Of a stretch of 64,000 nt of DNA, positions 2,694-58,451 are shown piece after piece; the first letter of the stretch is position 1; every line of letters starts with the position of its first letter. The notes under the pieces were generated by a model. That model saw only the letters and a list, made by a program, of their open reading frames with translations, had not been told where the DNA came from and ran no database searches. The stretch comes from Bacillales bacterium UBA5455 (lineage in GTDB: Bacteria > Bacillota_I > Bacilli_A > RFN20 > CAG-826), in the NCBI GenBank assembly GCA_002427365.1, contig DIQT01000015.1:77222-141221 (forward strand), given 5' to 3'. The translations under genes and the position numbers were made by a program.

Positions 2694-2777
2694 AATAGGT
2701 AGTTAATTAGTATATTTTTAGTTTTTATATTTATTTAAACCGTTAACTTTGTTATGATAAAGACGAGGTATTTAACA

Positions 2778-4340
2778 ATGGCAAATTTTGAACATAGCGG
2801 CATTGAAGTCCACTTTACTGATAATCATTACGCAACAAAACAAGAAGTCCAAAAGAAACTTCAAATTAGTAATGCGGATTCTTTTTGGAATCGAATTTTA
2901 GAGTATCGGAGTAAATTTACGCAAGAACTTTCGCTTGTCATGTTAACCCGTGAAAAATTAAAAATTTGTATTACCCCAAAAATTGCTGACCGGATTAATC
3001 AAGTGAGTTTAGGTTTAACGAAAGCCGCAAAACGGTTTATGAAACTCGATAATAAAACGCGGACCGATGAAATGGTGCGCGACCGGCAAGCGGAAAAGAT
3101 TTTAAAAGTTGTTGCGGATCGTTATAACGTCAATGTTGAAGATGGTTTTATTAATAATGTTATTCGTGATAATGTTTCAACTATTTTTAGTGAAAAGCTT
3201 GTCTTAGTCAACTATTATAACGTAATAAAAGAACTTAAAAACGCTAGTGTACATGCGCTTGATGAAGATTATTTAGGTGAACTTTATAAAATAATTAATG
3301 GTTATGGTGAATTAACCGAATTTTATCGGCTTGAAGAAATTAGCGATCCACGCCAAAGCGCTCAAGTTGGGCATGTTTATATTCATGCCCCCGCTAATCG
3401 GATTGAAGATATGGTTTTAAGTTTATTTAATTTCATTGAAATAAGCGACCAAGCCTTATTTGTTAAATTAACCGCGATTTATTTCTTCTTTGGTTACATT
3501 AAACCGTTTATGTACTTTAGTGAAGAACTTGCGATTGCGGTTGTTAAAGCGTATTTAGCGCATGAAGATTTTGAAGATATCGCACCTTATTTAAATATTG
3601 AAGTATTATTAAGCCGCGATAATGAAGGGTTAGAATACGCAATTTATAATGTTAAGAAGACCAACGACTTAACATATTTGCTGGATTATTTACTCGGTGA
3701 ATTTGAAGAAATTCTTGCGGACTTCATGGATACGATGGTTAAAGCGGAAAAAGACATTTTAGTTGATGAATACTATCGTCTTGAACCCGTAACGGAACCG
3801 GTTTATCCTTCGATTGAACCCTCACTTCCACCAAAACTAACAGAAGAAGAAATTGTTCCTATGGAAGAAGCGCCAGTAGTGGTGACACCCGTTATAGAAG
3901 TCACGGAACCAGCTCCTACACCAACGCCAGTTGTAACACCGCTTCCGGAAGTTAAAGAAGAAGTTCCGCTTACTCCAAAAGAAACACCAGAACCGCTTCA
4001 AGTCAAAAAAGTTGATGAAGTATTAACGCCAGAAAGTGGTATAGTTACCTCATCGCACATTGCGATTATGAATGTTCCAGTTGGCTTAAGTGAAGAAGAT
4101 GCGGAACGCTTAAGTGACCATTTATTAGAATTAAACCCCACCTTAAAACCGGGTGAAGCTTATTTCTATGCGCGGCATTGTACACTTGGTAAGTATTATA
4201 CAATCCGCCAATATAAAGAAACGATGGGTGTGGCGTATGAAACCGCTCGGACCTCAATGGATCATTTAGCTGAAGAAGGCTATTACCGCAAGGAACAATA
4301 TAAAAATAAATTTATTTATACGCCCGTTGCGCGGCGCTAG
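2778..4340 (+). CDS. Fic-fold domain protein with a degenerate active-site motif, a Pro/Thr-rich linker and a C-terminal winged-helix-like domain
   Basis: Residues LFVKLTAIYFFFGYIKPFMYFSEELAIAVVKAYL align to the Fic core (A..H..F..IHPFxDGNGRxxRLL) but the catalytic HPFx[DE]GNGR is replaced by KPFMYFSEEL. Residues about 330-410 are a PT/PE-rich low-complexity linker. The C-terminus (YTIRQYKETMGVAYETARTSMDHLAEEGYY) looks like a wHTH. A start at 2778 (RBS GACGAGG) is preferred over the ORF-track start at 2754. Confidence 0.5.
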   Translation: MANFEHSGIEVHFTDNHYATKQEVQKKLQISNADSFWNRILEYRSKFTQELSLVMLTREKLKICITPKIADRINQVSLGLTKAAKRFMKLDNKTRTDEMVRDRQAEKILKVVADRYNVNVEDGFINNVIRDNVSTIFSEKLVLVNYYNVIKELKNASVHALDEDYLGELYKIINGYGELTEFYRLEEISDPRQSAQVGHVYIHAPANRIEDMVLSLFNFIEISDQALFVKLTAIYFFFGYIKPFMYFSEELAIAVVKAYLAHEDFEDIAPYLNIEVLLSRDNEGLEYAIYNVKKTNDLTYLLDYLLGEFEEILADFMDTMVKAEKDILVDEYYRLEPVTEPVYPSIEPSLPPKLTEEEIVPMEEAPVVVTPVIEVTEPAPTPTPVVTPLPEVKEEVPLTPKETPEPLQVKKVDEVLTPESGIVTSSHIAIMNVPVGLSEEDAERLSDHLLELNPTLKPGEAYFYARHCTLGKYYTIRQYKETMGVAYETARTSMDHLAEEGYYRKEQYKNKFIYTPVARR

Positions 4341-4352
4341 AAGGAAATGGAT

Positions 4353-4628
4353 ATGTTAAAAACGTTAATTGGTTGGGATTCTCCCTTTGTCATTCTAATA
4401 TTATTACTCGCCTTTTTTGGTGTTCTTGCCCTTATTGTCTGGGCAATTCGGAAATTTGTTCCAGGCGTTGATCCTGACCGTAAAGAAAAAATCGATCCGG
4501 ATGTTGCGCTTGAAGAAGAGCTTGACCGCGTGTTAGTCCCATTTGATGAAAACAAACATGGCGCTACAACACCTAGTGAACCACCTGTTGAAGAAAGCGA
4601 TGAACATAACGAACATACCGAACAATAA
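4353..4628 (+). CDS. small single-pass membrane protein (N-terminal TM helix, acidic C-terminal tail)
   Basis: AAGGAAA RBS lies 7 nt before the ATG at 4353. One hydrophobic helix (FVILILLLAFFGVLALIVWAI) is followed by a D/E-rich tail. It starts 13 nt after the stop of the Fic-like gene. Confidence 0.5.
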   Translation: MLKTLIGWDSPFVILILLLAFFGVLALIVWAIRKFVPGVDPDRKEKIDPDVALEEELDRVLVPFDENKHGATTPSEPPVEESDEHNEHTEQ

Positions 4629-5724
4629 ACGACCAGAAGCGTTATACATTCACACACCTTTTTGTGAACATATTTGCTATTATTGTGACTATACCCGCAT
4701 TCTTTTAAGTGGGCAAAATGTTGATTTATATTTAACCGCGTTAGAAAACGAACTAACGAGTTATCAAGTTGGTAATGTTTCGACAATTTATATTGGTGGA
4801 GGAACCCCCTCTGCGTTAGATGAAGTCGCTTTTAAGCGACTTTTTCAAATGGTGGACCCGTATCGGAAAGGTGTTAAAGAATTCACCGTTGAAGTAAATG
4901 TTGAAAATTTAACCGAAAATAAACTTTTAATTATGAAAAATCATGGGGTCAATCGGCTATCCATTGGTGTCCAATCACTTCATGATGAAACATTAAAAAA
5001 AGCGGGCCGTTATCATACAGCAGGTGAAGCGATTAAAATGATTAATCTTGCGAAATCGCTTGGCTTTAATAACATTTCGGTTGATTTAATTTATGGCTTA
5101 CCAAATCAAACGCTAGAAGAACTTAGTGAAGATATCGACTTATATTTAGCGCTTGATTTGCCCCATATTGCCACTTATGCCTTAAGTGTTGCGCCTCATA
5201 CGATGTTTAAAAATCTTTTAGTTGAAGAAGTAAGTGATGAAATGTCGCGGATGATGTTTGATTTAATTTTAAATAAATTACGCGCGCATGGGTATCGACG
5301 TTATGAGGTTTCAACGTTTGCGAAACAAGGCTATGAATGTCAACATAATTTAACGTATTGGAATGATGAAGAATATTATGGAATTGGACTTGGCGCGGGT
5401 GGGTATGTTAACGGGGTTCGGTATTTAAATACGAAAAATTTATCTTCATATAATAAAGGAAACTATCGTTTAGAAGTAGATGAAGTAAATCCAGCGTCAC
5501 GGATCGAATATTTTTTATTAACCAACTTACGAAAAGCCGATGGTTTTTCGCTTCTTAAATTTAAAGAAGTTACAAATTTAGACTTTAGTGAATTATTCGC
5601 TAAACCGTTAGTTAATTTAGTTAAATATGGCCTAATTGAAATTAGTAATGACCGCGTATTTTGCAGTGATGAAGGCTTAATGAAGCTTGATTATGTCCTT
5701 TTTTCCTTAATTAAAGATTTATAA
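4600..5724 (+). CDS. hemW: Radical SAM heme chaperone HemW (HemN-like, oxygen-independent coproporphyrinogen-III oxidase family)
   Basis: The radical SAM CxxxCxxC motif (CEHICYYCDY) follows LYIHTPFC, as in HemW/YqeR. The position after lepA matches the Bacillus lepA-hemN-hrcA arrangement. The start could instead be at 4543/4546. Confidence 0.85.
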   Translation: MNITNIPNNKRPEALYIHTPFCEHICYYCDYTRILLSGQNVDLYLTALENELTSYQVGNVSTIYIGGGTPSALDEVAFKRLFQMVDPYRKGVKEFTVEVNVENLTENKLLIMKNHGVNRLSIGVQSLHDETLKKAGRYHTAGEAIKMINLAKSLGFNNISVDLIYGLPNQTLEELSEDIDLYLALDLPHIATYALSVAPHTMFKNLLVEEVSDEMSRMMFDLILNKLRAHGYRRYEVSTFAKQGYECQHNLTYWNDEEYYGIGLGAGGYVNGVRYLNTKNLSSYNKGNYRLEVDEVNPASRIEYFLLTNLRKADGFSLLKFKEVTNLDFSELFAKPLVNLVKYGLIEISNDRVFCSDEGLMKLDYVLFSLIKDL

Positions 5725-5750
5725 ACAAAGAAAAAATGTAGTTATCATCG

Positions 5751-5777
5751 CACTTTTATTATAAAAGTGTTTTTTTT
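5751..5777 (+). terminator. rho-independent terminator after hemW
   Basis: CACTTTTA-tta-TAAAAGTG hairpin followed by a T7 run. Confidence 0.6.
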
Positions 5778-5787
5778 GTTAACTTTT

Positions 5788-5814
5788 TTAGCACTTAGGG
5801 CTTGACAGTGCCAA
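5788..5814 (+). promoter_or_regulatory. second, weaker CIRCE-like inverted repeat overlapping the hrcA -35 box
   Basis: TTAGCACTT-N9-CAGTGCCAA compared with the consensus TTAGCACTC-N9-GAGTGCTAA (2-3 mismatches). Confidence 0.4.
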
Positions 5815-5833: not shown

Positions 5834-5860
5834 CTAGCACTCGAAGAAGAAGAGTGCCAA
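5834..5860 (+). promoter_or_regulatory. CIRCE operator (HrcA binding site)
   Basis: CTAGCACTC-gaagaagaa-GAGTGCCAA is a near-perfect match to TTAGCACTC-N9-GAGTGCTAA, placed between the -10 box and the hrcA RBS. Confidence 0.85.
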
Positions 5861-11136: not shown

Positions 11137-12405
11137 ATGAAATTTGTCGTTGAAACATTAGGCTGTAAAGTTAATAGCTATGAAAGTGATGCATTAAGTG
11201 TCGCGCTACTTAATAGTGGTTTTTCACTAGCAAAAATTGACGAAGATGTTGATGTCGCTATTATTAATACGTGTTCCGTGACTTCAACAAGTGATAAAAA
11301 ATCACGCCAACAAATTCGTAAATTAATAAGAAGTTATCCAAACGCAATCGTTGTCGCAATGGGGTGCTATGTCCAAATCGCTCATAACGAACTTAAAACA
11401 ATTCCAGGTTTAGATATTTTAGTGGGTACATCTTTACGAAGTAGTATTCCAACCTTAATAGAACAATTTAAAAAAGATGGTAAGCAAATTGATGCGGTCG
11501 AAGAAGAACCGCGCTTATTTACGTATGAAGAAATTGTGGCAACTTCATATACTTCGCATACACGTGCCTATTTAAAAATCCAAGATGGGTGCGATAATTT
11601 TTGTAGTTATTGCATTATTCCATATTCGCGTGGGAAAAACCGATCCCGTTTAGAAAGTGAAGTCATCGCGGAAGCAGTTGCGCTCGTTGAAAAAGGGTAT
11701 CCCGAAATTGTTTTAACGGGCATTCATACGGGTGGTTATGGCTTTGACTTAGAAGCGACTAATTTAACTATTTTATGTAAGAAAATTTTAGCCGCGGCGC
11801 CTGGCCTTGTCCGACTTAGAATTTCTTCCTTAGAAGAAACAGAAATTACTAGTGAATTAATTCATTTAATTAAAACTGAACCACGGATGGCGAAGCATCT
11901 TCATATTCCGCTTCAAAGCGGGAGTTCGAAGGTTTTACGAAGAATGAATCGAAGATATGATACGGATGCATTTTTAGCAAAATTAGATGAAATTCGTCGG
12001 GAAATTCCTCTACTTGCAATAACCACTGATGTTATTGTTGGCTTTCCTGGTGAAGAGGAAGAAGAATTTAAGGAAACAGTCGCGTTTATTAAAAAAGCTA
12101 ACTTTAGTGAACTCCATGTTTTCCCATTTTCCTCACGAAGCGGCACACCCGCAAGTAAAATGCGCGGTCAAGTTGATCCCCAAGTTAAAAAAGACCGTGT
12201 GCAAGTTTTATTAGCGGTTAGTGAAGAATTAAATAAGAAGTATAAACAACAATTTGTTGGTCAAAGTCTAACGGTAATCTTTGAAAACTTTGATGAAAAT
12301 AAAAAAGTTTATCGCGGCCATACATCAAATTATTTATTAGTGGAACAAGCTAGTAACGAAAATTTATCCGGTAAAATAAAATCAGTAATTTATCAAATGC
12401 AATAA
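11137..12405 (+). CDS. mtaB: tRNA t6A37 methylthiotransferase MtaB (MiaB-like radical SAM enzyme, YqeV)
   Basis: MTTase N-terminal domain (ETLGCKVNSYES), radical SAM CxxxCxxC (CDNFCSYCIIP) and a TRAM domain. The position after dnaJ matches the Bacillus yqeV locus. Confidence 0.85.
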   Translation: MKFVVETLGCKVNSYESDALSVALLNSGFSLAKIDEDVDVAIINTCSVTSTSDKKSRQQIRKLIRSYPNAIVVAMGCYVQIAHNELKTIPGLDILVGTSLRSSIPTLIEQFKKDGKQIDAVEEEPRLFTYEEIVATSYTSHTRAYLKIQDGCDNFCSYCIIPYSRGKNRSRLESEVIAEAVALVEKGYPEIVLTGIHTGGYGFDLEATNLTILCKKILAAAPGLVRLRISSLEETEITSELIHLIKTEPRMAKHLHIPLQSGSSKVLRRMNRRYDTDAFLAKLDEIRREIPLLAITTDVIVGFPGEEEEEFKETVAFIKKANFSELHVFPFSSRSGTPASKMRGQVDPQVKKDRVQVLLAVSEELNKKYKQQFVGQSLTVIFENFDENKKVYRGHTSNYLLVEQASNENLSGKIKSVIYQMQ

Positions 12406-12473
12406 GTGTCGCATTTATATTAATAGACCCCAAGCCATAAAAACCGCTTTTCCTAAACAGTGTCGTAAAATTA

Positions 12474-12503
12474 TTGACATATTAATCCGCTTTTGTGTAT
12501 AAT
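12474..12503 (+). promoter_or_regulatory. sigma-A-type promoter for rpmF
   Basis: TTGACA, an 18-nt spacer and TATAAT. Confidence 0.5.
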
Positions 12504-12536
12504 GAGCATGCAAATAAAAAAGGAGGCGATATCGAT

Positions 12537-31896: not shown

Positions 31897-31972
31897 AAAA
31901 CTCACAAGCTAAATGTATAGCGACGGTTGTGAGTTTTTTATTTGCGTAAAAAAAACGCCGAAGGGGCGTTTT
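31897..31972. terminator. tandem terminators: a long-loop hairpin (31897-31937) plus a bidirectional AACGCC-gaagg-GGCGTT hairpin (31954-31970), serving yneF-like (+) and plsY (-)
   Basis: Both hairpins have an A-run upstream and a T-run downstream. Confidence 0.65.
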
Positions 31973-32147
31973 AACACATTAAATATTTCTAAATAAGAAG
32001 AACAAGTAGTAATGAAGGAAAAGACTAAGTTAATTGTGGCTTAAATTACGCGTGTCAATGAAAAACATAGTCCTAGACTTAGAAATCATTTACTTGGATG
32101 TTAATCCACAATTGGTATGTGTTAACTAAATAACTACTAATTAATAA

Positions 32148-32852
32148 CTAATCAGCGTTAGATTGGCCAATTTTATTTTCAGTTCCATTTAGTAAACGAG
32201 CGATATTGCCGTGATGTTGATAAACGATAAAACCCGCTAAAAGGAATAACGCAAGCGCGAAAACTAATGGATTTGTATACGAATAGTAGTAACCAAAATT
32301 TTGAAGTTCAGGAACTAAATATATTAACGATATTAAGGCAAGTATGAAAGATGTTACCATTGATGAAAGGGAAACATATTTTTTAATACCAACAATTAAA
32401 ACAAAGATGATTAAACCAACAACGGTGAAAATCCAGTTGCTTGCGACAATGATGCCAGCATAGAAGGCAACACCTTTTCCGCCTTTAAATTTAAAGAAGA
32501 GCGGGAAATTATGGCCAAGCGTTAAAGTGAATAAGGTAACTAAGCTAATAACTTGCGCCCAAATAGCTTCGGGGCCACTAGTTAAATTAAAACCAAGCAT
32601 TACGCCATTTAGTGCCCAGTACATACCAGCGCTTTTGATAATATCAAGAATAATAACGAGAAGGCCAATTTTTGGACCAAGCACCCGCGCGGTATTTGTG
32701 CCTCCCGCATTATGGGAACCATGGTCACGAACATCCTTCCGATAATAGTATTTACTAATTAAAATTGAATTCGAAAGCGATCCTAATAGATAGCCACTAG
32801 GAATTGCGATTATTCCGAAGACAACTAATATTTTGATTAATTCACTACTCAT
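32148..32852 (-). CDS. plsY: Glycerol-3-phosphate acyltransferase PlsY
   Basis: GSHNAGGTN (GSGNxGATN motif), FKGGKGVA and a polytopic membrane topology. It is adjacent to parE as in B. subtilis yneS. Confidence 0.9.
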   Translation of the reverse strand: MSSELIKILVVFGIIAIPSGYLLGSLSNSILISKYYYRKDVRDHGSHNAGGTNTARVLGPKIGLLVIILDIIKSAGMYWALNGVMLGFNLTSGPEAIWAQVISLVTLFTLTLGHNFPLFFKFKGGKGVAFYAGIIVASNWIFTVVGLIIFVLIVGIKKYVSLSSMVTSFILALISLIYLVPELQNFGYYYSYTNPLVFALALFLLAGFIVYQHHGNIARLLNGTENKIGQSNAD

Positions 32853-37628: not shown

Positions 37629-37708
37629 AACTTATAAACTACTAACTACTTACTAGAAATATACAAAGTAAGGTTTTAGACGGTATTTATTTGTTTTATT
37701 AGTGAGTT

Positions 37709-41503: not shown

Positions 41504-41517
41504 TTTAGAAATTTTAA

Positions 41518-41548
41518 AACATCCAGTTAGTGAATTGGATGTTTTTTT
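41518..41548 (+). terminator. rho-independent terminator after rsfS
   Basis: AACATCCA-N9-TGGATGTT followed by a T7 run. Confidence 0.7.
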
Positions 41549-41684
41549 ATTACATACACATAAATTTAAGAGAACAATCGGAAACCGTTATAATTTTAAA
41601 TTTGTATTAACTTCGTATAATCTATATTATGTAAACTAAACTATATAAAAGGCGCATTAATAAAGGGTTTTAAACGATTGATTA

Positions 41685-41730
41685 TAAAAAAGTGGATAAG
41701 CAACCTAATTTAAGGTACGGACTTATCCAC
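41685..41730 (-). terminator. long-loop hairpin plus U-run, likely terminator of the MazF-like gene
   Basis: GTGGATAAG and CTTATCCAC form a perfect 9-bp inverted repeat separated by 21 nt, followed on the minus strand by TTTTTT. Confidence 0.45.
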
Positions 41731-41795
41731 AATTTCACTAACTTATTAACAACTAAATATATACTAATTAACCACTTTAACAGCTTAAACTACTA

Positions 41796-42458
41796 CTATT
41801 CGGAATAAATAAGCTTGCCATCAATTGTTGTTTGTTTAATCGCATTAAGGATTTTATCCATTTGTTCTTTCGTTAAAACAGCGACTGGTTCATGATCCGC
41901 AAACTCTCTTTTTTCCTTATCTTTTCTAATTAAGCCCCGGCGAAAAATCCGCAACTTATCAATTCCACGTTTTTGATTAAAGACCGCGATTGTTTTCACA
42001 TTCCCCATTAAGCCAGGGATTGGTCCAATTTCAACGTCGCTTGTTGGGTTGCTATTTGCCTTATGCATCGTTTTTAATGGAACGACTTCAACAATCTGAT
42101 TCGTTTCTAAGGATGGACGGACAACGACCGCGTAATGACGACCACGTAATTCACTACCGACGCCAATACCAAAATCGACTTCATAAACTTCACCCGGTAG
42201 TAAATCATACATTAATTGTCTCGTCATGTTACTTTTTACATAGGTGAGTAATTGCCGTAAGTCTTGGAAATATCTGTTAGCGGTTTCTAGTTCCGCAACA
42301 TAAATTTCCATTTTTTCATCATTTGTATAACCGTAGGGACGGTTTCCTTTGTCCGACATTCGGCGTTGTTGGCGTAATTTTTCTTCATCGCGATCGTCGT
42401 CATCATCATCATCAGCTGGTGGGGCTATTAAGCCTTCTTTGTTTAAAATACTTTTCAT
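41796..42458 (-). CDS. MazF/PemK-fold (CcdB/MazF superfamily) domain protein with an 85-aa acidic N-terminal extension
   Basis: Residues about 90-215 align to B. subtilis EndoA/MazF: PGEVYEVDFGIGVGSELRGRHYAVVVRPS matches [29 protein letters not shown], and LTKEQMDKILNAIK matches LDDEMMDKVDEALQ. The N-terminal 85 aa include a D7 run and KLRQQRR. The start at 42458 follows a GAGAAAGGAAA RBS. Confidence 0.55.
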   Translation of the reverse strand: MKSILNKEGLIAPPADDDDDDDRDEEKLRQQRRMSDKGNRPYGYTNDEKMEIYVAELETANRYFQDLRQLLTYVKSNMTRQLMYDLLPGEVYEVDFGIGVGSELRGRHYAVVVRPSLETNQIVEVVPLKTMHKANSNPTSDVEIGPIPGLMGNVKTIAVFNQKRGIDKLRIFRRGLIRKDKEKREFADHEPVAVLTKEQMDKILNAIKQTTIDGKLIYSE

Positions 42459-42832
42459 AATTATTTTCCTTTCTCCCATTTACGAAAATTTTGGTATGAC
42501 AAAAAAGTATAAACACTGATGATCTTTTTGATTAAGTTTATTTTGAATGGCTATTAGTTGTTGTAGCTAAAGTTAGATTTAATTCAAATTTGTTTTTTTG
42601 TTTAACGTAGATCAATACTCGGTTTAAATGTTTCTAATTTGTCCTCCTTGTTTTCCTAAACAGGTAGTATTTTATATATAAAACTTAACATGAAATGAAA
42701 CAAAAAGGTAGATGAAAAGTGATAAAAACGCAATTTTATCAACTTATTTTTAAAAAACACGATTTTTCGGAAATTGGTCTAATTTTTGGTGTACCTTAAT
42801 AGTTTAGGCTCTTTTAAAAAGGGTGAAAAAAG

Positions 42833-49841: not shown

Positions 49842-49874
49842 ATTCTAATTCTCTACTAAATAATTACTAAAAAA

Positions 49875-56799: not shown

Positions 56800-58104
56800 T
56801 TATTCATGATCATGATGACCGTGTTCTTCACTATTATATAATCCATCAATATAATCAATAACGTCACCATAGGCGACACTTACTTGTTCTTGGCTTATGA
56901 GGTCTTTAATATTAACGACTTGGTTAGCGACTTCATCATCACCAATAATAATTGCGTACCGTGCGTTAGCCCGTTCCGCTCGTTTAAATAGTTGTTTGAA
57001 ACTATGTTTAGCGAAGTTAATATCGCCTTGATAGCCATAACCGCGTAACGCGGTTAGTAATGAGAAAGCATCGTCGAATGAGTTTTCCCCCACGCTCATG
57101 ACGTAAAAATCAAGGCTAGAAGCGATGTTTTCTAAGATTTCATCATCGTTTAAGACACTATAAAGCCGTTCAATTCCAACCGCGAAGCCAACACCTGGAA
57201 GGCTTGGGCCACCGACTTCTTCTAGTAAGTGTTCGTAATGCCCACCTGCACCGATTGCACCATAATCTTTTCCTTTACTAGAAACATAATGGAATTCAAA
57301 GACGGTGTGTGAGTAATAATCTAAGCCGCGAACGAGTTTATCATCGATTTCGTAGCTTACACCATACCCTTCTAAAATATTAAGTAGTTGGTCAAATTCG
57401 CTTTTGGCGGATGGTGATAAGAATTCACTTAAACTTGGTGCTTCTTTAATAATTTCTTGGTCAGAAGGAACTTTACAATCAAGAATCCGTAAGGGGTTCT
57501 TCTCATAGCGATTTTGGCAATCACTACACATTTCGTGAAAATGCGGTTTAAAGTATTCTTTTAACGCTTTTGTATATTCAAGGCGCGAAGTTTCATCGCC
57601 AAGTGTATTAATTTTTAAGGAAACATTTTGAAGTCCTAAGACGTTTAAAGCGGTAATTCCTAGTAAAATAACTTCAACATCATTGAAAATTGAGGAAACA
57701 CCAACGCTTTCAACACCAAATTGGTGAAATTCGCGATATCTTCCAAGTTGAGGCCGTTCGTAGCGGAAACATTTCCCTGAATAATAATATTTAAGCGGTA
57801 AATCTTCGGTTGCATATAGCTTTTCGCTTACGATGGCGCGCATAACACCAGCGGTACCTTCGGGCCGTAAAGTCATCGAACGATTACCTTTATCGATAAA
57901 TGTGTACATTTCTTTTGTAACGATATCGCTTGTTTCGCCCACACCACGTTCAAAGAGTTCAGTTGCCTCAAATGTTGGTGTTCGCATCGGAACAAAGCCA
58001 TAAATTTGCGCAATCGCGGCGAATGTTTGTTCGATATGATCAAAACTTAACGCTTTTGCGCCATAAATATCTTGCGTTCCTTTTGGGGTTGTAAATTTTG
58101 CCAT
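56800..58104 (-). CDS. hisS: Histidine--tRNA ligase (His-rich C-terminal tail EEHGHHDHE)
   Basis: Class IIa motifs (KCFRYERPQLGRYREFHQFGVE, GGRYD-like GAGGHYEHLL) and a C-terminal anticodon-binding domain. Confidence 0.93.
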   Translation of the reverse strand: MAKFTTPKGTQDIYGAKALSFDHIEQTFAAIAQIYGFVPMRTPTFEATELFERGVGETSDIVTKEMYTFIDKGNRSMTLRPEGTAGVMRAIVSEKLYATEDLPLKYYYSGKCFRYERPQLGRYREFHQFGVESVGVSSIFNDVEVILLGITALNVLGLQNVSLKINTLGDETSRLEYTKALKEYFKPHFHEMCSDCQNRYEKNPLRILDCKVPSDQEIIKEAPSLSEFLSPSAKSEFDQLLNILEGYGVSYEIDDKLVRGLDYYSHTVFEFHYVSSKGKDYGAIGAGGHYEHLLEEVGGPSLPGVGFAVGIERLYSVLNDDEILENIASSLDFYVMSVGENSFDDAFSLLTALRGYGYQGDINFAKHSFKQLFKRAERANARYAIIIGDDEVANQVVNIKDLISQEQVSVAYGDVIDYIDGLYNSEEHGHHDHE

Positions 58105-58335
58105 ATTTCCTCCTTTTAAAGTAAAAAAAGTGATACAAAGGACGACATTAGCCGCGGTACCACCTTAATTCGTAATTGTTTATTACGCACTTATGAACCT
58201 TAACGCGGTTAACGGAATTCTTATGAATTAAATTCTCGTCTCCATAGTGTCCGAGCGTCACTTCATCTTATTTCGTTCCACCAGCCCGAAATTCTCTAGA
58301 TAGATTCAGTGATATCGTCTATATCATCGACTCGA
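58105..58335 (-). ncRNA. T-box riboswitch leader of the hisS-aspS-tkt operon
   Basis: On the minus strand, AAUUAAGGUGGUACCGCGG matches the T-box consensus (AAnnnGGGUGGnACCGCG). Terminator helix GUGGUAC...GUAUCAC is followed by a U7 run (plus coordinates 58123-58164). A UAGAGA element and a GGACACUA segment carrying overlapping GAC (Asp) and CAC (His) triplets lie upstream. Promoter TTGATT-17-TACAAT (plus coordinates 58339-58367). Confidence 0.6.
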
Positions 58336-58451
58336 TATATTGTAGTCTTTATTGACATTAAAATCAATTAAGAGGCCTATTTCCATCGGAATAAATTTAG
58401 TAAAACTAGCAATACAACTAAATATATAATAAATAACTACTATAAAACTAC

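Follow-up and report, generated by a model that had tools for sequence, protein, structure and literature searches.

A predicted non-catalytic Fic-fold protein and its small membrane partner, fixed between lepA and hemW in a lineage of uncultured Bacilli

The window analyzed here is a 64,000-nucleotide stretch of Bacillales bacterium UBA5455 (contig DIQT01000015.1, positions 77,222 to 141,221, forward strand). Between lepA (879-2693) and hemW (ending at 5724) lie two plus-strand open reading frames (ORFs), at 2754-4340 and 4347-4628. The first, referred to as ficL, encodes a Fic-fold protein with a predicted-dead catalytic motif, and the second encodes a small single-pass membrane protein. In our preferred reading, to which we give a probability of roughly 0.5, FicL and this partner constitute a lineage-specific unit, co-transcribed with hemW, that would act by binding: the C-terminal winged helix-turn-helix (wHTH) of FicL on a TTAGTA repeat array at its own promoter, with the partner serving as anchor. 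Fic proteins have been studied almost entirely as enzymes, namely AMPylators, toxins, and effectors. Here, an order-level lineage of uncultured, small-genome Bacilli from gut, rumen, and digester has long kept a predicted-dead Fic protein in a core housekeeping locus. If the proposed mechanism is true, FicL would clearly exemplify, in bacteria, the recruitment of a Fic pseudoenzyme to a cellular, non-virulence role, together with a defined cis-element, the phased TTAGTA repeats, that can be tested in vitro even though the lineage is uncultured. The gene pair additionally offers a practical marker for this lineage.

Fold and domain architecture of FicL

An earlier note on this stretch, made from the sequence alone, had proposed that the larger ORF contains a Fic-like core, a Pro/Thr-rich linker, and a C-terminal winged-helix module, and all three are borne out by profile comparison and structural modeling. 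The Pfam Fic profile (PF02661) matches the window protein at 15.8 bits, below its gathering score of 24, which is exceeded by the orthologs P0014, P0024, and P0059 (25.8-26.9 bits); the Penicillinase_R wHTH gives a sub-threshold Pfam match at 19.7 bits, and a search of FicL against NCBIfam returned no match. A profile built from 119 family members recovered solved Fic structures with E-values of 7e-09 (4rgl) and 3e-05 (8cil). An AlphaFold2 model, generated with the family alignment as input, reached a mean predicted local distance difference test score (pLDDT) of 84.8, exceeding 90 for residues 20-340 and 445-525, with a disordered stretch at residues 343-440 (pLDDT 39-63). Compared with this model, the solved Fic structures CbFic2 (8cil), SoFic (3zcn), and 4rgl scored 23.2, 22.9, and 22.4, followed by 7cb8 and CccR (7xux), each at 22.1; the root-mean-square deviation from SoFic was 2.6 Å over 264 residues. 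The Fic fold, a helical core around the motif loop, is therefore present and well supported. The domain order, comprising an N-terminal helical region, the Fic core, and a C-terminal winged helix, is the DUF4172-Fic-wHTH arrangement of the SoFic/CbFic2/CccR type. In one ortholog, P0089 (645 aa), approximately 140 residues of the Fic core are present twice, which may be genuine or may stem from misassembly.

Loss of the catalytic and inhibitory motifs

The earlier note had also held that every catalytic residue is replaced, and across the 119 aligned family sequences, on which all motif counts below are based, this proves to be the case. The profile alignment places I-K-P-F-x-x-x-S-E-E-I-A on I-H-P-F-A-D-G-N-G-R-M-G, so that in the window KPFMYFSEELAI occupies the place of HPFx[D/E]GNGRxxR. 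Within the family, the canonical His has become Arg or Lys, the first Gly has become Phe, Tyr, or His, the Asn is Ser in 113/119, the second Gly is Asp or Glu in 118/119, the first Arg is Glu in 116/119, and the second Arg has become an aliphatic residue. Only the Pro and Phe of the motif are kept invariant, as is a downstream lysine, K265 (119/119). None of the 119 members contains HxFx(D/E)GNGRxxR, and no Fic or Doc motif was found elsewhere in any of them; an intact HPFxDGNGR in homologs, which would have pointed to a misalignment, was thus not encountered. Similarly, none of the 119 sequences has the class II inhibitory motif (S/T)xxxE(G/N) where the alignment places SLAIEN of 4rgl; the window protein reads VADRYN there (residues 119-124).

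Judged from these substitutions, the former phosphate-binding nest has become an acidic, bulky patch. Because the anion hole and the arginines are gone, we strongly infer that FicL lacks AMPylation activity. Since the replacement residues are themselves conserved, the history of the protein is one of changed function and not of decay, and the loss of the motif is well supported.

Conservation and distribution

Hundreds of full-length FicL relatives were identified, all from uncultured "Bacilli bacterium" metagenome-assembled genomes; in a scan taking one genome per species, they occurred in 478 species. The hosts are labeled as uncultured Bacilli, Bacillales or "Mollicutes", Ca. Onthovivens, and Coprobacillus sp. 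CAG:826, names that tentatively point to the GTDB order RFN20 (PMC10868615, PMC8629427). Conservation of the protein is well supported and strongly domain-specific. Pairwise identity is highest in the C-terminal wHTH (74%, net charge +6.6), followed by the N-terminal domain (56%) and the Fic core (51%, mean net charge -10), and falls to 28% in the linker, which varies from 34 to 121 aa and has a composition of P17 E16 V14 Q10. When the C-terminal 88 residues were searched against 1.84 billion representative proteins, 369 proteins were recovered at E <= 0.001; among the matches listed, the similar segment always forms the C-terminal end of a family-sized protein or a fragment, which suggests that the wHTH module is private to the FicL family.

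The two-gene insert described in the earlier note is real: the order helicase-lepA-ficL-(~250 nt)-hemW-hrcA-grpE-dnaK is found in essentially all 86 loci examined, making the synteny well supported. Given this constancy, ficL and the small gene represent an ancient, vertically inherited, and fixed feature of the lineage instead of a recent insertion. No integrase or transposase genes were seen in the flanks of the locus, and the GC content across both genes (0.34-0.43) matches that of the flanks. The lepA-hemW-hrcA-dnaK order itself is ancestral synteny of Bacilli, as established for Bacillus subtilis. Insertions between hemW and hrcA occur in several loci, leaving a gap of ~2.4 kb in L020, L021, L082, and L085 and of 1.6-2.8 kb in L049 and L055, and consisting of an RDD-domain gene in L006 and L042; the lepA-ficL-small-hemW block is intact in these lineages.

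The small membrane partner

Whether the small membrane protein is always adjacent to ficL had been left as a question, and the answer is that it nearly always is. An ORF of 54-98 aa begins 4-29 nt past ficL in 78 of 79 non-redundant loci, and every one encodes a strong transmembrane (TM) helix. Across the family, the partner consists of a short uncharged N-terminus, the TM helix followed by approximately 3.5 basic residues, and a tail of ~51 aa with a net charge of -6; in the window, the predicted topology comprises a TM helix at ~4386-4448, basic juxtamembrane residues, and an acidic cytoplasmic tail. The uncharged N-terminus, the basic residues after the helix, and the acidic tail together predict an N-out/C-in orientation. 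Both the constancy of the partner and this predicted topology are well supported. The tail carries a conserved motif, EELDRVLxPxxDE, which also occurs in degenerate forms such as DENLSRYLQDVDD. Searches against curated families returned no match for the partner, and its own family was found only in the same organisms as ficL.

A Fic-fold protein beside a small partner gene resembles the class I FicT/FicA systems (VbhT/VbhA), and the partner was considered as a Fic antitoxin. This assignment was rejected: the motif [ST]xxxE[GN] is at chance level, occurring in 2/79 partners versus 2.9 +/- 1.7 in shuffled sequences, and the partner is a downstream single-TM protein.

The TTAGTA array and the ficL promoter

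The lepA-ficL spacers of the family contain two to four direct TTAGTA repeats with an 11-bp period; the window has two, TTAGTatatttTTAGT. The exact pattern TTAGT-N6-TTAGT occurs five times in the window versus 0.13 expected, and 56 of the 71 exact matches in 962 kb of related loci fall within the lepA-ficL spacer. At least a relaxed repeat pair is present in 76/81 of these spacers; as a positive control for element recovery, half-sites of the controlling inverted repeat of chaperone expression (CIRCE) were recovered in 59-60 of 60 hemW-hrcA spacers. The core of the array is conserved while its spacers vary, and since neighboring units share the same spacer in only 3/118 cases, the units are not products of slippage.

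The candidate ficL promoter is the best -35/-10 pair downstream of the repeats. In the window, its -35 hexamer begins 12 nt past the last repeat; across the family, the distance from the last repeat to the best -35 is 11-15 nt in 36 loci and 22-25 nt in 25 (61/77), corresponding to one or two helical turns. In six loci, lepA and ficL are 0.6-4.9 kb apart; there the array lies directly upstream of ficL, and an ordinary hairpin follows lepA. A role of the array as a mark of the lepA 3' end, either as a terminator or as a three-frame stop cluster, was therefore rejected at this locus: in the six rearranged loci the array accompanies ficL and not lepA, and its spacing is in phase with the ficL -35. 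That the array is linked to the ficL promoter is well supported. No stable RNA structure was found in the lepA-ficL spacer (z +1.2 relative to shuffles).

Further copies of the array are located upstream of the hisS T-box leader, in the xseB-dxs, fmt-helicase, and dnaK-dnaJ spacers, and beside terminators. These copies usually stand right after a stop codon, on the strand of the upstream gene, and because 11 is 2 modulo 3, a run of three units brings TAG into every frame; a terminator or stop-cluster role may apply to arrays in these other spacers. A metagenome scan for the triple TTAGTA array returned at least 120 loci; none of those listed contained ficL, and most were perfect tandem repeats with an 11-bp unit in unrelated organisms.

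Comparison with known systems

Winged-helix regulators acting on 11-bp direct repeats near a promoter are exemplified by the PhoP boxes of B. subtilis (TTAACA-N5) and the heptad repeats of CtsR. The FicL array resembles sites of this type in having a hexamer core with a 5-nt spacer and two to four repeats in helical phase that abut the -35.

The class II DUF4172-Fic-wHTH proteins used for comparison were SoFic (3eqx/3zcn), CbFic2 (8cil), CccR (7xux), and Dde_2494 (4rgl). Relative to these, FicL has lost all catalytic and inhibitory-helix residues, contains an extra N-terminal domain of ~70 aa, and replaces the rigid connecting helix with a disordered linker of 34-121 aa. It is also acidic overall, its membrane-protein partner is obligate, its place on the chromosome is fixed within one lineage, and its wHTH has no detectable sequence similarity to other proteins. 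The closest active relatives offer a direct precedent for FicL as a regulator: the wHTH of CbFic2 mediates DNA binding, and CccR is a repressor of the promoter from which it is expressed (PMC10628234). Non-catalytic or degenerate Fic proteins are represented by Bartonella BepC, whose Fic domain can work non-catalytically at the membrane (PMC7842960), and by Pseudomonas AvrB. Both are secreted virulence effectors acting in eukaryotic hosts, whereas FicL is cytoplasmic, chromosomally fixed in a free lineage, and equipped with a wHTH and a separate TM partner; unlike FicL, BepC keeps a recognizable non-canonical motif.

Degenerate Fic domains and Fic-wHTH proteins are thus already known separately. 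New is their combination: the motif is fully dead, an N-terminal domain and a long disordered linker have been added, the wHTH is private to the family, the membrane partner is obligate, and the pair sits at a fixed housekeeping locus with a repeat array beside it. This combination has no family of its own in Pfam or NCBIfam, no paper describing it was found, and a literature search for a pseudo-Fic protein with a winged helix found no description.

Proposed function and alternative explanations

The ancestor of FicL was probably a class II Fic protein with an N-terminal helical region, a Fic core, and a C-terminal wHTH. It would have lost the nucleotide-binding and catalytic motif as well as the auto-inhibitory glutamate. 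A small N-terminal domain resembling a winged helix, and a long linker predicted to be disordered, would be later additions. Because the catalytic motif is lost, FicL most likely serves as a non-enzymatic scaffold that works by binding instead of AMPylation. From the available sequences and models we infer DNA binding by the near-invariant basic wHTH, the identity of its target, contact between FicL and the partner, and the lack of any enzymatic activity. The best candidate target would be the TTAGTA repeats, which lie in helical phase and abut the -35 of the ficL promoter; their binding would result in autoregulation of ficL, the small gene, and hemW, and FicL may also act on similar arrays elsewhere in the genome. 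Membrane anchoring or sequestration of FicL is the most likely role of the single-pass partner, which would act through EELDRVLxPxxDE in its acidic cytoplasmic tail.

Several observations weigh against this regulatory model. The top structural neighbors of the FicL wHTH are of the ArsR, MarR, and Z-alpha types, whose usual targets are palindromes or Z-DNA and not direct repeats, and the whole protein is acidic (isoelectric point 4.9), unlike the DNA-binding CbFic2 (9.75). The array is absent from 5/81 lepA-ficL spacers. Arrays also occur in spacers too short to hold a promoter (fmt-helicase, xseB-dxs, and dnaK-dnaJ) and beside terminators, so they could be recognized by a different factor or could act more generally, in promoters or in DNA curvature. 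Binding of the wHTH to DNA, or to the TTAGTA array in particular, is a prediction with indirect support from the basic charge of the module and from the conserved phased array at the ficL promoter, and the strongly conserved substituted motif could equally signal a new active site.

Among the alternatives, FicL might tentatively be viewed as a protein- or RNA-binding adaptor, whose wHTH and remodeled Fic groove hold a conserved cellular partner (HemW, LepA, the DnaK system, the ribosome, or an mRNA) at the membrane via the small protein, with the arrays being bound by another regulator or, as an UP-like element, by RNA polymerase alpha subunits. The gene neighborhood says little for it, the order being ancestral, and an adaptor of this kind gives no account of an array that is fixed beside ficL and moves with it, while its wHTH is basic, as in nucleic-acid binders. 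More speculative, and in our view unlikely, is that FicL and its partner form a DNA-membrane tether or global regulator, in which the dead Fic scaffold multimerizes on chromosome-wide phased TTAGTA arrays (~6 per 64 kb here) and the PEVQ-rich linker and the anchor couple these sites to the membrane in partly wall-less, genome-reduced Bacilli; if true, the Fic fold would here have taken on a cellular role of a new kind, served by a cis-element spread across the genome.

A re-tooled enzyme is quite improbable. Such a protein would use the site [RK]PFxx[FY]S[DE]E...K265 for another chemistry, on a substrate brought by the wHTH or the membrane partner. Conservation of the serine, the two acidic positions, and K265 at the frequencies given above goes beyond structural need, and the Fic fold has diversified before, as in the kinase Doc and the phosphocholine transferase AnkX; the authors of the BepC study likewise warn that a non-canonical motif may keep another activity (PMC7842960). 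Nevertheless, bulky aromatic and acidic residues in place of the phosphate-binding glycines and arginines should repel nucleotides, Ser256 is Asn in six members and hence an unlikely nucleophile, and the substituted site fits no known catalytic constellation. The earlier note had suggested either a regulatory or adaptor module or a decayed toxin-like cassette. A binding role is favored by the present data, whereas a Fic toxin-antitoxin or mobile cassette that entered the lepA-hemW junction and is now decaying is effectively refuted: the catalytic motif is gone, and many Fic proteins act as the toxin of a toxin-antitoxin module that includes a small partner gene (PMC8401265), yet intact full-length orthologs occupy the same locus in 478 species, conservation is strong and domain-specific, base composition is normal, the flanks carry no mobility genes, and the partner is downstream and membrane-anchored with an antitoxin motif no commoner than chance.

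Gene unit and other features of the window

The start of ficL is predicted to be ATG 2778, giving 520 aa, because the family N-terminus starts there, a ribosome-binding site (GAGG, 2765-2768) precedes it, and ATG 2754 lies inside the -10-like hexamer. For the small gene, the probable start is 4353. The two ORFs of the window lie in one reading frame, with TAG plus two codons between them (4338-4349); this is not conserved, as the gap and the frames vary in other loci. The start of hemW is uncertain (in-frame candidates at 4543, 4546, 4558, and 4597), and the gene overlaps the end of the small ORF, both in the window and in the called genes of other loci. The hairpin after hemW (-7.1 kcal/mol, z -3.8) was matched by 0/200 shuffles. 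Beyond it, hrcA-grpE-dnaK has a separate promoter matching consensus at 12/12 positions, TTGACA-16-TATAAT, with two CIRCE copies around it. The coordinates of all features are summarized in Table 1.

Table 1. Features of the window and of related loci. Residue numbers refer to the 528-aa ORF.
Feature	Position	Strand	Description
Candidate ficL operator array	2707..2722	+	Two TTAGT(A) direct repeats, 11-bp period, TTAGTatatttTTAGT
Candidate ficL promoter	2730..2758	+	-35 TTTATT (2730-2735), 17-nt spacer, -10 TATGAT (2753-2758); consensus match alone
ficL	2778..4340	+	520-aa Fic-fold protein with predicted-dead catalytic motif; ORF open from 2754 (528 aa)
N-terminal domain	2778..2978	+	Residues 9-75; three helices and a beta-hairpin, winged-helix-like topology, unclassified
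DUF4172/Fic_N-equivalent helical region	2979..3248	+	Class II Fic
Fic core	3249..3668	+	Residues 166-305; acidic
Degenerate Fic motif	3501..3536	+	KPFMYFSEELAI
Disordered linker	3780..4073	+	Residues 343-440; Pro/Glu/Val/Gln/Thr-rich
C-terminal module	4074..4337	+	Residues 441-528; one helix and a basic wHTH
Small partner gene	4347..4628	+	93 aa, or 91 aa from ATG 4353
Partner tail motif	4515-4541	+	EELDRVLVP, from alignment
hemW	4597..5724	+	Radical-SAM heme chaperone family, TIGR00539 E 2e-90; last gene of the unit
Intrinsic-terminator-like hairpin	5750..5777	+	9-bp stem, then T8; end of ficL-small-hemW unit
CIRCE-like inverted repeats	5788-5814 and 5834-5860	+	Bracket a perfect TTGACA-16-TATAAT upstream of hrcA
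Phased TTAGTA arrays elsewhere in the window	32125-32151, 37630-37656, 41741-41767, 49844-49870, 58417-58450	-
PemK/MazF-like toxin domain ORF	41796-42479	-	227 aa, E 8e-09
T-box leader upstream of hisS (56800-58104)	58135-58336	-	Rfam 92.7 bits
Phased TTAGTA arrays in related loci	L007/L011/L014/L019 ~1610-1650; L039/L051/L065/L078 ~12320-12520

An Rfam scan of the window for known RNAs after arrays gave the hisS T-box leader as its sole match, which is missed at the default setting because its score falls just below the gathering score of 93. Downstream of two arrays, at ~31900-32060 and ~41510-41700 on the minus strand, promoter-like hexamers are followed ~90-170 nt on by strong terminator hairpins. 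The intervals contain neither an ORF nor an Rfam match, and both regions are candidate small RNAs or leaders. The MazF-like protein has an N-terminal extension of ~90 aa with a run of seven Asp residues, unusual for a protein of this type. Finally, a different 11-bp tandem repeat, ATTAGTAGGTG/ATTAGTATGTG, is present in 4-8 copies on gut and rumen contigs of ~50% GC (metagenome loci L092, L099, L100, L126, L131, L146, L153, L170, L196, and others). The repeat is unrelated to ficL and may belong to another group, where it could function like an iteron.
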